A stretch of DNA of 64,000 bases from Candidatus Melainabacteria bacterium 17Bon1m (GTDB taxonomy: Bacteria > Cyanobacteriota > Vampirovibrionia > Obscuribacterales > Obscuribacteraceae): positions 448,001-512,000 of the forward strand of contig JAVLKG010000001.1 of assembly GCA_032128875.1 (NCBI GenBank), given 5' to 3'. Each line of letters opens with the position of its first letter. Within the stretch, counting starts at the first letter, position 1. Below are positions 43,067 through 47,651 of the stretch, piece after piece. The notes under the pieces are model-generated. The model made no database searches. It was not told the DNA's origin and saw nothing but the letters and a program-made list of their open reading frames with translations. The translations under genes were made by a program, and so were the position numbers.

Positions 43067-43489
43067 TTACTGAATTGGACCGGTCTTCCGTTTCCGTTTG
43101 ACGTCGACGATCAACGTAATAAAGGACGCTATTGTGAGTCCTGATCCAAATGCGAAGAAGAGCACGGGAAGGAAGTAGAGGTTTAGCCAACTGTTGATTG
43201 TCCAGTTCTTTGGATCGCCCTTGTCGTAGAGAATTGGGACAGTGTCGCCGGTTTTGAATTCCGGTGGCGACGAACCAACTTTGCCTCTTCCCTCTATTGC
43301 TTCTCCGTTGTCCGGCCGAAATCGGACAATGGGATAGGACGCGCCCTTGCCACTGGCTTCTAGCCTGAGTACAGTACCAGATGTGGTGCCACCTTCTTTC
43401 AACAATCTCTGAGATTGGAAATAGAACGTTACGGCGACGGCATAGAAGACTATTGATAGCGAGCTGAGAAGCAAAATTACCTTGAACAT
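43067..43489 (-). CDS. DUF3592-like membrane protein
   Basis: TM, TSGTV...YPIVRF...GDTVPILYDKGDP, TM. Confidence 0.8.
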   Translation of the reverse strand: MFKVILLLSSLSIVFYAVAVTFYFQSQRLLKEGGTTSGTVLRLEASGKGASYPIVRFRPDNGEAIEGRGKVGSSPPEFKTGDTVPILYDKGDPKNWTINSWLNLYFLPVLFFAFGSGLTIASFITLIVDVKRKRKTGPIQ

Positions 43490-43686
43490 GATTCACACCA
43501 CTTTGTCGGAATCATCAGGTTTCCCTCATCGGTTCGATCAAGAAACGCCTTGATCAATTTGTGCTGCTGATTTCATAGCTGTTTTCACATATGTAGGTAC
43601 ATTGTTGGAATCGCCAGCTGCGGTCAAGTCGACCGGTCGTCAAAAATGTAATTTCTGTAATCTCCTGTTACAGTCCCCACATTCTA

Positions 43687-43715
43687 TTGACAGCTCGGAC
43701 CCTAGACTGTAACGT
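43687..43715 (+). promoter_or_regulatory. Sigma70-type promoter of the arg leader
   Basis: TTGACA (43687-43692), 17 nt, TAACGT (43710-43715). Confidence 0.75.
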
Positions 43716-43750
43716 GGACAAAGGTTTTGTTTTTTCCAGGGCAACCAGAA

Positions 43751-43831
43751 ATGACCTTTGCGAATTACACCAGCAACAACCGACGTACGCGCCGCGTTCT
43801 ATTGAACTCGGGGCCGGCTGGGCTGCGTTGA
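43751..43831 (+). CDS. Putative arginine attenuator leader peptide MTFANYTSNNRRTRRVLLNSGPAGLR
   Basis: 26-codon ORF; CGA CGT ACG CGC CGC at 43781-43795; lies between the promoter and the terminator. Confidence 0.8.
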   Translation: MTFANYTSNNRRTRRVLLNSGPAGLR

Positions 43832-43858
43832 TCTAGGTCACCAGAAACCACACCTTTA

Positions 43859-43895
43859 GCTCCCGAGTTCTTCTAGGACTCGGGAGTTTTCTTTT
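43859..43895 (+). terminator. Attenuator terminator upstream of argF
   Basis: GCTCCCGAGTTCT-TCT-AGGACTCGGGAGT followed by TTTCTTTT; the 5' arm is complementary to GAACTCGGGG (43804-43813). Confidence 0.85.
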
Positions 43896-44001: not shown

Positions 44002-45042
44002 ATGGTATTCACAATGTACAAAAAGCCGCCGACCACGCCTGTGGGCTTCAAGTCCCAGCGCATGTCTCCGCCGCAGCATGGTCGTTCGCCGCTCAACAAG
44101 GTTCTTGTAGAAGACACGCTGAGAGGCAAAGACTTCCTGGGCATCGGCTATTTCACCGCCGCTGAATTGAAGCTGTTTTTGGAAACGGCCGAACTGCTTA
44201 AAGCAAACAAGTTTGACGACACCCAAACCCTCTTCGCCAAAGGGCAGACTCTTGCGCTTTGCTTCGAAAAACCATCGCTAAGGACGAAAGTCACTTTCGA
44301 AGCCGGCATGATCCAGCTTGGCGGCAGTTCAATCTTCCTCGAAGACAAGCTTGGTGTCAGGGAATCCGTGCCGGATATCGCCAGAAACCTGGACAGGTGG
44401 TTGGACGGAATTATGGCGCGGGTGTTTGAACACAACACGCTTATCGTGCTTGCCGATTACGCTCAAGTCCCTGTAATCAACGGGCTTAGCGACCTCGAGC
44501 ACCCCTGCCAGGCACTGGCGGATTTTCTGACTATTAAGGAACAAAAAGCTATTAAAGATTGGAACTTCAAAGGAATCAACCTTGCATACGTAGGAGACGG
44601 CAATAATGTGGCTAATTCACTCATGCTTCTCGCCGCCAAGCTTGGCTGCAATTTCTCAATCGCGTGCCCGTCCGGCTATAAGCCCGACGCCACCCTTTGG
44701 GAAATGGCGATGGAAGAGGCGAAGCACACCGGTGCGCAATTAAAAATGACAGAGTCCCCCGCCGAAGCTGTTGCTAACGCGGATGCGGTCTACACCGACA
44801 CTTGGGTGTCGATGGGGCAAGAAGAGGAGATGGCGGAGAGAATCAAAATCTTCGAAAGCTATCAAGTCAACGAAGCTCTGTTGAAGTTTGCAAAACCGGA
44901 TGCCATCGTCATGCACTGTTTGCCCGCGCACCGGGGGCAGGAAATCACAGATGCCGTGATGGATGGACCACAATCAGTAGTTTTTGAACAAGCGGAGAAT
45001 AGACTCCACGTTCAAAAAGCAGTCATCTCACTAATCATGTAA
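44002..45042 (+). CDS. argF: Ornithine carbamoyltransferase
   Basis: FEKPSLRT, HPCQALAD, VGDGNN, DTWVSMG, HCLPAHRG, QAENRLH. Confidence 0.95.
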   Translation: MVFTMYKKPPTTPVGFKSQRMSPPQHGRSPLNKVLVEDTLRGKDFLGIGYFTAAELKLFLETAELLKANKFDDTQTLFAKGQTLALCFEKPSLRTKVTFEAGMIQLGGSSIFLEDKLGVRESVPDIARNLDRWLDGIMARVFEHNTLIVLADYAQVPVINGLSDLEHPCQALADFLTIKEQKAIKDWNFKGINLAYVGDGNNVANSLMLLAAKLGCNFSIACPSGYKPDATLWEMAMEEAKHTGAQLKMTESPAEAVANADAVYTDTWVSMGQEEEMAERIKIFESYQVNEALLKFAKPDAIVMHCLPAHRGQEITDAVMDGPQSVVFEQAENRLHVQKAVISLIM

Positions 45043-45121: not shown

Positions 45122-46342
45122 ATGAAGAAAATTCTCTTGGCATACAGCGGCGGACTCGACACTTCCTGCATTCTCACCTGGCTGAAGGAGCAGTACAAGG
45201 TGCCTATCGTGGCTTATTGTGCCGATGTCGGACAGAAAGAAGATTTCGAAGCGGTCAAAGTCAAAGCGATCAAAACCGGCGCTGAGAAGTGCATTATTGA
45301 AGATTTGAACGAGACTTTCGTCAAGGATTACATCTTCAAAGCAATTAAAGCCAATGCGCTGTACGAGTCCTTCTACCTGATGGGAACCTCCATCGCTCGT
45401 CCGTGCATTGCGCAAGGCATGATTACTGCAGCTCTGAAAGAAGGCTGCGACACCATTGCTCACGGCGCTACCGGCAAGGGCAACGATCAGGTGCGTTTCG
45501 AACTGGCTGCTAAATCTCTGGCGCCTCATTTGAATGTGATCGCCCCATGGAGAATGTGGAAATTCGACGGCAGGAACGACCTCTTCGATTACGCGGAGAA
45601 GCACGGCATTCCTTTGCCGGTGACCAAAGAGAAGCCATACTCCATGGACGCCAACCTCATGCATATTAGCTATGAAGGCGGCATTCTGGAAGATCCGTGG
45701 GCGGAAGCTCCGGAGAACATCTATCTGTGGACTAAGAACCCGGAAGATGCTCCCAATAAGCCTGAATTCGTCACTATCGACTTTGATGCCGGCGTTCCTG
45801 TTGCAATCAATGGAGAGAAACTCGGCCCAGTAGAGCTACTCAACAAGGCAAATGCAATCGCAGCCGAACATGGCGTGGGAAGGCTCGATATGGTCGAAAA
45901 TCGCTACATCGGCATTAAGTCGAGAGGCGTTTACGAAACACCTGGCGTGACCATCTTGATGCAAGCGCACAAGGCAATCGAATCTCTTGTGCTCGACAAA
46001 GAAGTTATGCACCTCAAAGATTCGTTCACTCAGAAGCTATCGACCCAAATCTACAACGGTTACTGGTTTGCACCAGAAACCCAAATCCTCTGGAAGATGG
46101 TCGAAGAAACCCAACAACCCGTTACCGGTACCGCCAAGATTAAGCTCTACAAGGGCAATTCGATTGTAGTGGCACGGAAGTCTCCGGCGTCGTTGTACGA
46201 CCTCAAGGTTTCCAGCTTCGAGAATATGTCTGAGTTCCAATCGGCGGACGCAGGCGGATTTATCAATATCGCAGGACTGAGACTAAAAACCTGGAGCAAG
46301 AAAAATGCAAGTTTTGAGAAAAGCCTTCAAGCAACCCCTTAG
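45122..46342 (+). CDS. argG: Argininosuccinate synthase
   Basis: LAYSGGLDTS, HGATGKGNDQVRFE, SRGVYETPG. Confidence 0.98.
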   Translation: MKKILLAYSGGLDTSCILTWLKEQYKVPIVAYCADVGQKEDFEAVKVKAIKTGAEKCIIEDLNETFVKDYIFKAIKANALYESFYLMGTSIARPCIAQGMITAALKEGCDTIAHGATGKGNDQVRFELAAKSLAPHLNVIAPWRMWKFDGRNDLFDYAEKHGIPLPVTKEKPYSMDANLMHISYEGGILEDPWAEAPENIYLWTKNPEDAPNKPEFVTIDFDAGVPVAINGEKLGPVELLNKANAIAAEHGVGRLDMVENRYIGIKSRGVYETPGVTILMQAHKAIESLVLDKEVMHLKDSFTQKLSTQIYNGYWFAPETQILWKMVEETQQPVTGTAKIKLYKGNSIVVARKSPASLYDLKVSSFENMSEFQSADAGGFINIAGLRLKTWSKKNASFEKSLQATP

Positions 46343-47651
46343 TGACGTAGTCACTGAATTCGTTGCCTGCACGCACGCCGATGCGCATCTCGTCAAAGCA
46401 GATTTGACGGGCAGCAAAGCGCATGCTCAAATGCTCGCCGAAGAGGGGCTCATCAGCCCCTCTCAGGGTGAGGCAATTCAAGGCGGTTTGGACACTCTGT
46501 TGGCGAAAGCCGAAGAAGGGAAGTTCGAACTAAAAGTTGAGTATGAAGACGTTCACATGAATGTTGAGAAACAGCTTGAAGAGCTGATCGGTTCAGATGC
46601 TTTGAGGTTGCATACGGCGAGAAGCAGAAACGACCAGGTCGCGCTTGATTTGCGACTCTACACTGTCGGTGCGATTGATTCGCTTGTCGATGGTTTGAAG
46701 TTCCTTCAGGCTGCGATTTTGAAATCAGCGAAGAAGCATGCGGATGTCGTTATGCCGGGCTATACTCATTTGCAGCGTGCGCAGCCAGTTTTATACGCCC
46801 ATGCAGTTCTTGCTTTTCACGAAATGTTTTCGAGAGATATCGAACGTTTCACCGATTGCAAAAAACGCACTGCCGTTTCGCCACTCGGTGCCGGTGCGCA
46901 AGCTGGTTCTGGATTATCAATCAATCCACAATCGGTAGCAGCCAAATTGGGCTTTGAAAAGGTTTTCACAAACTCAATCGACGCTGTGAGCGACAGAGAT
47001 TTTGCAGCTGAGTTTTTGATGGCGTGTAGTTTGACTGCCGTGCACATTTCTCAGATGGCAGAAACATTGGTCATCTGGAGCAGCTCTGAGTTTGGATTTG
47101 TTGAACTGGCAGACAATGTGACGACCACTTCCAGCTTGATGCCTCACAAGAAAAACCCCGATCCACTGGAAATCGCTCGTGCAAAATCTGGTGCTGTAGT
47201 CGGCGACCTGGTTAACTTGCTCATCACGCTGAAGGCGTTGCCGCTTGGCTACAACAGAGACTTGCAAGAGACAAAGCCTCCTGTAATCAACTCTGCCGGC
47301 ATTGTCGGCGAAGCGCTGAAAGTGATGGCGTGCTGTGTAGACGCAGTTACGGTCAACGTTGAGAAAACGTTAGCCGCCGCTTCCGACCCCGCGTTGATGA
47401 CCACCGATCTTGTTGAGTATCTTGTGAACAAAGGCGTCCCCTTCCGTAAGGCGCACGAAACAATCGCTGAGATTGTGGCTGACGCATCGGAGAAAGGCAT
47501 GGCACTTCCTAAGATGGAATTGAGCGAGTATCAGAAGTATGCGGCGGAGTTCCACAACGACCTCTACGCACTCTTCGATCCAAAGCTCTCCGTCTCAGCC
47601 AAAAAATCCCACGGCTCGACCGGAAATGAGCAAGTAAAAAAGAATTTGTGA
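46305..47651 (+). CDS. argH: Argininosuccinate lyase
   Basis: EDVHMNVE, LHTARSRNDQ, MPGYTHLQRAQP, SSLMPHKKNPD; overlaps argG by 38 nt. Confidence 0.97.
   Translation: MQVLRKAFKQPLSDVVTEFVACTHADAHLVKADLTGSKAHAQMLAEEGLISPSQGEAIQGGLDTLLAKAEEGKFELKVEYEDVHMNVEKQLEELIGSDALRLHTARSRNDQVALDLRLYTVGAIDSLVDGLKFLQAAILKSAKKHADVVMPGYTHLQRAQPVLYAHAVLAFHEMFSRDIERFTDCKKRTAVSPLGAGAQAGSGLSINPQSVAAKLGFEKVFTNSIDAVSDRDFAAEFLMACSLTAVHISQMAETLVIWSSSEFGFVELADNVTTTSSLMPHKKNPDPLEIARAKSGAVVGDLVNLLITLKALPLGYNRDLQETKPPVINSAGIVGEALKVMACCVDAVTVNVEKTLAAASDPALMTTDLVEYLVNKGVPFRKAHETIAEIVADASEKGMALPKMELSEYQKYAAEFHNDLYALFDPKLSVSAKKSHGSTGNEQVKKNL

Follow-up and report, generated by a model that had tools for sequence, protein, structure and literature searches.

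A probable ribosome-mediated transcription attenuator with arginine control codons upstream of argFGH in Obscuribacteraceae

Described systems and the argFGH leader

ArgR is the usual regulator of arg genes, and textbooks usually present arginine biosynthesis as an amino-acid pathway under repressor control, not attenuation. The Escherichia coli leaders trpL, thrL, hisL, and leuL incorporate a short upstream ORF (uORF) with tandem cognate codons, the 1:2, 2:3, and 3:4 stems, and an intrinsic terminator before the first gene, and the argF leader analysed here is likewise built. In contrast to the E. coli leaders, it uses arginine, matches no Rfam leader family, and resides in a host in which rho was not detected. 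Leaders of Obscuribacterales also differ from them in running through segment 2 and in a protector that the antiterminator often outcompetes at equilibrium.

Arginine has been linked to leaders and small ORFs in several other ways, described here as far as the accessible parts of the sources go. The Salmonella orf34-speF uORF likewise carries consecutive Arg codons, and pausing at low arginine alters the RNA fold; its target is ornithine decarboxylase, however, and control proceeds via Rho, RBS occlusion, and RNase G with no intrinsic terminator (PMC6386406), whereas our locus has an intrinsic terminator and an antiterminator before arginine biosynthesis genes, in a genome where rho was not found. 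The fungal AAP (arg-2/CPA1) is also a uORF through which arginine status acts on a gene for arginine synthesis, but it is eukaryotic and translational, and it stalls at high free arginine through conserved residues (PMC11550727). E. coli argL is likewise a small ORF with a regulatory effect on argF; it overlaps the 5' end of argF out of frame and affects argF expression (bioRxiv 10.1101/511675), whereas the leader ORF described here ends 170 nt upstream of argF, with a terminator in between. T-box control of arg genes exists as well, and similar-looking leaders of Streptomyces ilvB and leuA did not act as classical attenuators when mutated (PMC1262725). Arg T-boxes share the target genes and the signal (uncharged tRNA) with our proposal, but the T-box model RF00230 had no match in the host genome, compared with control matches in 5 of 14 reference genomes. 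In Xanthomonas, sRNA-Xoo5 is a 124-nt transcript seen by Northern blot directly upstream of PXO_00353 (N-acetylornithine carbamoyltransferase); its size and position are how a terminated arg leader would be expected to look, but the accessible part of that report does not treat it as an attenuator (PMC3039613), and the Rfam scan of the argF leader gave no sRNA-Xoo5 match.

The first-pass annotation had left the novelty of an Arg attenuator to a literature check, and no published classical one was found by our search. Most subscription papers and older comparative surveys lay outside the reach of this search, and the supplements of genome-wide surveys could list some; in the accessible main text of one such attenuator survey, the word 'arginine' is absent (PMC2965389).

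The window, by which we mean the whole 64,000-nt stretch of DNA analysed, comes from a genome (G000) of 7.55 Mb that is 93% complete, and the closest named relatives of its ArgF belong to Ca. Obscuribacterales (64–67% identity). The attenuator element is 150 bases long. Its parts and neighbours are the following:

43656–43672, no strand assigned: palindrome TGTAA-N7-TTACA, ending 14 nt before the −35 and outside the attenuator proper
43687–43715, plus strand: sigma70-type promoter, TTGACA-17-TAACGT (−35 at 43687–43692, 17-nt spacer, −10 at 43710–43715)
43751–43831, plus strand: leader ORF of 26 codons, MTFANYTSNNRRTRRVLLNSGPAGLR, from ATG 43751 to TGA 43831
43781–43795, plus strand: control codons Arg-Arg-Thr-Arg-Arg (CGA CGT ACG CGC CGC), invariant in 11/11 genus loci
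43789–43814, plus strand: 1:2 hairpin (protector), folding at −13.3 kcal/mol
43804–43813, plus strand: segment 2, antiterminator 5' arm (core CTCGGGG), pairing with 43861–43870
43858–43895, plus strand: intrinsic terminator (3:4 stem; segment 3 is 43861–43870) and U-tract; stem 43858–43888 at −21.9 kcal/mol
44002–45042, plus strand: argF, ornithine carbamoyltransferase (TIGR00658, 385.8 bits; cut-off 280.85)
45122–46342, plus strand: argG, argininosuccinate synthase (TIGR00032, 510.2 bits; cut-off 268.2)
46305–47651, plus strand: argH, argininosuccinate lyase (TIGR00838, 520.4 bits; cut-off 279.5)

The leader ORF, the Arg codons, the 1:2 hairpin, and the 2:3 pairing all lie where the first-pass annotation had placed them, and its assignment of the downstream genes to argFGH agrees with three scores above curated TIGR cut-offs. 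The ORF call for argG opens at TTG 45062; ATG 45122 was taken instead. Arg occupies leader codons 11, 12, 14, and 15, with a fifth Arg at codon 26, and the stop codon falls 15 nt beyond segment 2. The duplex 43804–43813/43861–43870 consists of nine Watson-Crick pairs plus one G-U (−20.0 kcal/mol). The terminator was present as annotated, and its U-tract (43887–43895) ends about 105 nt upstream of the argF ATG at 44002. Folding of the 179-nt leader gave a z of −3.1, a value as good being reached by 2 of 200 shuffles. The stretch is contained in four RNA runs of one sample; three runs returned 0 contigs, and a fourth run only flat contigs.

Transcription of the leader would start near 43722, judging from the promoter. 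The annotated promoter is present and conserved in the genus, with TTGACA in 10/10 and TAACGT in 9/10 of the loci with room for it; a promoter scan by consensus did not list it because the −10 hexamer agrees with the consensus in just 3 of 6 letters. The palindrome upstream, the core of which (GTAA-N7-TTAC) recurs in 10/10 genus argF loci with room, is a possible protein-binding site. It resembles the GlnR/TnrA box, TGTNA-N7-TNACA. DNA further upstream is not conserved in the genus, and a divergent ORF encoding a 140-aa membrane-protein-like product without an NCBIfam match lies at window positions 43067–43489 on the minus strand. The same palindrome also stands at C3:286308-286324 (L281) of the host genome; of the four perfect sites in the genome besides the one at argF, one precedes homoserine dehydrogenase, and the pattern showed no genome-wide enrichment in G000. 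Seven other genomes of the genus have a near-identical site.

Conservation in the family and the distribution of ArgR

A search with ArgF returned matches in 38 of 61 genomes, and 30 loci were retrieved. All 11 argF loci of the genus keep the leader, with the same 26-codon length and identical Arg codons, while the spacer between terminator and argF varies freely in length. We then surveyed 104 genomes of the family, with argJ found in 53, argC in 59, argG in 74, and argR in 22, and examined loci from 75 of them using a detector that called for a terminator below −11, an antiterminator of −11 or lower, and three or more Arg among the 13 codons preceding segment 2, the last Arg being permitted at 6–40 nt before it. 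This detector returned 87 matches, of which 84 were retained; two before argR (G088 and G091) were removed for having neither start codon nor core, and one before argJ (G014) because no start was found. The retained leaders precede argJ (30), argF (29), argC (21), and argG (4), and the design occurs in 49 of the 75 genomes and 18 of the 26 genera. The leader that had been annotated at a single argF locus is thus conserved in both genus and family. Beyond the family, there were no matches at 28 argG/argF heads in 28 loci from other families of the class, and three weak, unconvincing lines at 77 heads of more distant argF-like loci; in both sets, the operon heads may be other genes.

The host genome itself contains three Arg leaders, before argF, argC, and argJ, each with its own TTGACA. 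In a scan of G000 for a uORF followed by a terminator and a gene, 179 candidates were obtained, among which argJ ranked 3rd, argF 5th, and argC 12th by antiterminator energy. Upstream of argS, carA, and the best argD matches of this genome, no Arg-rich uORF was seen within 600 nt. Two of the three Arg leaders lie in one region (L239, C2:673200-677400), before argC and between argC and argJ-argB, with their own promoters and terminators. The argC leader of G000, unlike most in the genus, stops early, before segment 2, and the detector is blind to leaders of this form. In the leader alignment (A1), the part lying between segments 2 and 3 (columns 56–82) is almost identical in the genus argC leader and the argF leaders of g10 and g14, with the genus's own argF leader more divergent there, a hint that Arg leaders may have been copied between arg genes.

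Covarying stems were among the points on which the first-pass annotation proposed to judge the element, and both the 2:3 and 3:4 helices covary across the 27 leaders of this alignment, the mean column identity of which is 53%. In the 2:3 helix, 92% of cells are paired and 16 changes are two-sided (covariation 0.274, compared with at most 0.119 for slid partners); in the 3:4 helix, the corresponding figures are 93% and 32 (0.393, compared with at most 0.133). Neither score was reached by any of 500 shuffles, which ignore kinship, the structure having been read from the same sequences. One position covaries over segments 2, 3, and 4 together: its 2/3 pairs are U-A (17), C-G (6), and U-G (4), and its 3/4 pairs are A-U (17) and G-C (10). 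Since the antiterminator 2:3 shares the 5' arm of the terminator, the two stems are mutually exclusive. A fold of the 1:2 type, at −6.6 to −17.2 kcal/mol, is present in all 27 representatives. A conserved inner hairpin seemed, by eye, to lie between segments 2 and 3; it was set aside because it folds only slightly better than shuffles, with a mean z of −0.7 and only 9 of 27 leaders below −1.

With regard to ArgR, the first-pass annotation had raised whether the genome has argR, and neither ArgR domain was found in G000 (93% complete), compared with control matches in 8–9 of 14 reference genomes. The search for rho was likewise negative in G000, with control matches in 8 of 14 reference genomes. 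By the strict detector, 17 of the 26 genera have the leader without argR, 7 have argR without the leader, 1 has both, and 1 neither; the corresponding numbers for the 75 genomes are 48, 19, 1, and 7. These counts come from incomplete genomes and from fetched gene heads only. Genera with a contiguous argR-argG-argH-argF-argC cluster (g4, g15, g46, and g48) have no leader. Judging from these sequences, ArgR and the leader would mostly alternate among genera, and this alternation is a pattern rather than a test because related genomes are not independent. Strict mutual exclusion was rejected, as genus g6 has both. Visual inspection adds two argR genera with leader-like elements, g22 (upstream of argB) and g3 (upstream of argJ). 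Loci L081–L083 and L095 of g22, and locus L106 (G036), have, between argC and argB, Arg-run leaders with a CTCGG core and their own TTGACA, the terminator of L083 having a weak U-tract. In genome G034, which has argR, an Arg-rich uORF lies some 340 nt upstream of argF and has no intrinsic terminator close by (L042/L019); it may represent a distinct leader type or the remnant of one.

In Obscuribacteraceae, the attenuator module would largely substitute for ArgR, being placed separately before each arg transcription unit. A conserved classical Arg attenuator would fill a gap and explain how bacteria that do not have ArgR can regulate the pathway. As repressor and attenuator alternate among genera, the family would also allow the exchange of one for the other to be traced.

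Ribosome position and folding balance

From sequence and comparison, we consider it very probable that the argFGH element is a classical attenuator of transcription in which a translating ribosome gauges the supply of charged tRNA-Arg, which would make arginine a new amino-acid specificity for this class. Several features of a classical attenuator were found here, namely an Arg-codon uORF, an intrinsic terminator, and an antiterminator sharing its 5' arm, together with the expected spacing in our model. When Arg-tRNA is low, the ribosome would wait on Arg codons 11–15 and cover segment 1, leaving segment 2 free; the 2:3 stem would then form as segment 3 emerges, the terminator would be blocked, and argFGH would be transcribed. 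When arginine is plentiful, the ribosome would pass through segment 2, which would be either covered or refolded into 1:2 behind it. The 3:4 hairpin could then form in the absence of a stall, ending transcription near 43895.

To relate ribosome position to the fold, we assumed that the ribosome covers −15 to +14 relative to the A site and that the transcript ends at segment 3. In this model, the probability of 2:3 in the argF leader was 0.94–1.0 with the ribosome at codons 1–15 and 0 at codons 16–25, so that the predicted switch edge coincides with the last control Arg. A ribosome on the Arg codons gave a predicted probability above 0.5 in 26 of the 27 leaders, and at some later codon the value fell below 0.1 in all 27. 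The predicted edge of the antiterminator is no more than one codon away from the last Arg in 24 of the 27, a result only partly built in by the detector. With the same folding model, the antiterminator window of E. coli trpL and thrL falls on their control codons. A generic measure that counts all pairing of the terminator 5' arm gave no clean switching in most Arg leaders; because this measure was saturated, the one specific to segment 2 was adopted.

The balance at equilibrium is less simple. Without a ribosome, 2:3 is favoured over the protector in 15 of 27 leaders, including the argF leader (0.79–0.83), and with the ribosome at the stop codon, 2:3 re-forms in 11 of 27, the argF leader again included. 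The corresponding values without a ribosome for E. coli thrL and trpL, by a related and less specific measure, are 0.18 and 0.07. As 2:3 beats 1:2 at equilibrium, termination would need a passing ribosome and a kinetic trap. For the argF leader, the estimated barrier to 2:3 was 5.3 kcal/mol while the ribosome sits on Arg, and that for the terminator was 3.2; leaving 1:2 would cost 10.6 kcal/mol with the ribosome at the stop and 14.0 after its release. These values suggest that the choice between 2:3 and termination may be settled by kinetics. The computation of alternative folds that the first-pass annotation proposed came out in its favour, the predicted switch falling at the last Arg codon; as a refinement, 1:2 does not beat 2:3 at equilibrium in the argF leader. 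Likewise, its proposal that stalling at the Arg codons frees segment 2 is reproduced by the ribosome model, whereas termination in the model needs kinetics beyond the stability of 1:2.

Alternative readings and other leaders of the genome

The leaders, 16 to 41 codons long in 18 genera, differ in peptide sequence outside the Arg run, and this bears on the possibility that the same RNA switch is set by a nascent peptide that stalls the ribosome on sensing free arginine, ornithine, or citrulline rather than uncharged tRNA-Arg. Asn/Ser/Thr just before the Arg run is common to the leaders, which is a point in its favour, and within the accessible parts of the sources, an Arg-codon leader with extra layers is known (orf34-speF, PMC6386406) and the fungal AAP responds to free arginine (PMC11550727). 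However, AAP needs conserved residues (PMC11550727, accessible part), whereas these peptides vary in both sequence and length, and a stall here would lead to readthrough of biosynthetic genes, the reverse of AAP and in agreement with stalling at low arginine. We regard control by a peptide of this kind as unlikely; a short hidden peptide motif could nonetheless be present in the Arg leaders.

To evaluate codon usage, we took 27 representatives, one per genus and gene, chosen for Arg. Their control codons are CGC (68), CGA (27), CGT (16), CGG (6), AGA (3), and AGG (1), and Arg makes up 108 of 280 codons inside the control window compared with 31 of 485 elsewhere. These Arg counts, and part of the spacing result above, are built in because the detector requires Arg codons near segment 2. 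The share of CGA, 27 of 121 control codons, would suit a leader that senses a general slowing of translation, whether from slow CGA/CGN decoding, polybasic stalling, or ribosome stress, and not arginine specifically, and Arg-containing leader motifs are stall sites upstream of hflX and resistance genes in the accessible part of one report (PMC8632094). Such a sensor would not be expected upstream of four separate genes of arginine synthesis, for the most part where no ArgR is found, nor in a genome whose other amino-acid genes have leaders with their own amino acid, and we judge it very unlikely.

That the uORF is a genuine reading frame is supported by its start. An in-frame ATG with no intervening stop, at most 110 nt from segment 2, was found in the Arg frame of 76 of the 84 leaders, compared with 9 and 3 in the other frames, and the same comparison in the 27 representatives gave 24 against 3 and 1. 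TTGAC occurs within 70 nt upstream of the leader start in 22 of 27 representatives, and a Shine-Dalgarno-like 4-mer at the start in only 12 of 27; the ORFs extend through segment 2 and stop 10–35 nt beyond its core. The start counts, together with varying third codon positions, argue against a TRAP- or PyrR-like RNA-binding protein or a small-molecule fold that would decide between 2:3 and 3:4, the CGC run being an RNA element and the ORF incidental. That the CGC-rich run also pairs with segment 2 is consistent with this alternative, as is the precedent, in the accessible part of one source, of Streptomyces ilvB/leuA leaders that looked classical until control-codon mutations acted unexpectedly (PMC1262725). 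Nevertheless, the alignment contains no conserved unpaired motif other than the stems and the Arg codons, and an Rfam scan of 15 + 4 sources returned nothing at the gathering score and one chance match for the argF leader (E 6.8), which leaves protein or small-molecule control no more probable than general slowing.

A chance arrangement of an ordinary leaky terminator and an incidental small ORF is scarcely credible given that the element recurs upstream of arg genes in 18 genera and that its stems covary, even though a similar detector flagged 16 of 2469 upstream regions of G000 for Arg (two being argF and argJ, a background therefore of about 0.6%) and an Arg-rich small ORF with a terminator thus stands at 14 of ~2467 non-arg regions.

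Returning to the tRNA-reading attenuator, a broader proposal is that a portable Arg attenuator replaced ArgR as the main control in Obscuribacteraceae, having been copied before each arg unit (at most 3 per genome). It would be one of an unusually broad range of attenuators (Arg, Asn/Asp, Met, His, and Trp), and many of its leaders would be 'on' by default at equilibrium so that a moving ribosome is needed to terminate. If true, transcription and translation would be tightly coupled in this sister group of cyanobacteria, which would do without Rho. We advance this proposal tentatively, as something that falls a little short of an even chance.

Other leaders were observed in G000. One with seven consecutive His precedes hisG (L032, C12:178588-178798), and a Trp leader (WWRW) precedes a trpE-like gene (L236, C14, before 36817); the classical mechanism is therefore within the repertoire of this genome. 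A Tyr-rich uORF candidate before a holB-like gene was set aside. Two long leaders with terminator-like ends and no Rfam match were noted, one (L238, C4, before 494889) upstream of a gene that we take to be glyA-like and the other (L278, C3, before 561884) upstream of the best argD-family match. On the minus strand, an Asn/Asp-rich leader with terminator and antiterminator precedes a non-discriminating aspS (L033, C3, before 619797). Also on the minus strand, a Met-rich leader with three Met in five codons and a −22 terminator (L235, C12, before 42794) has the strongest antiterminator of the 179 candidates and lies upstream of a cystathionine gamma-synthase-like gene, making it a candidate methionine attenuator.
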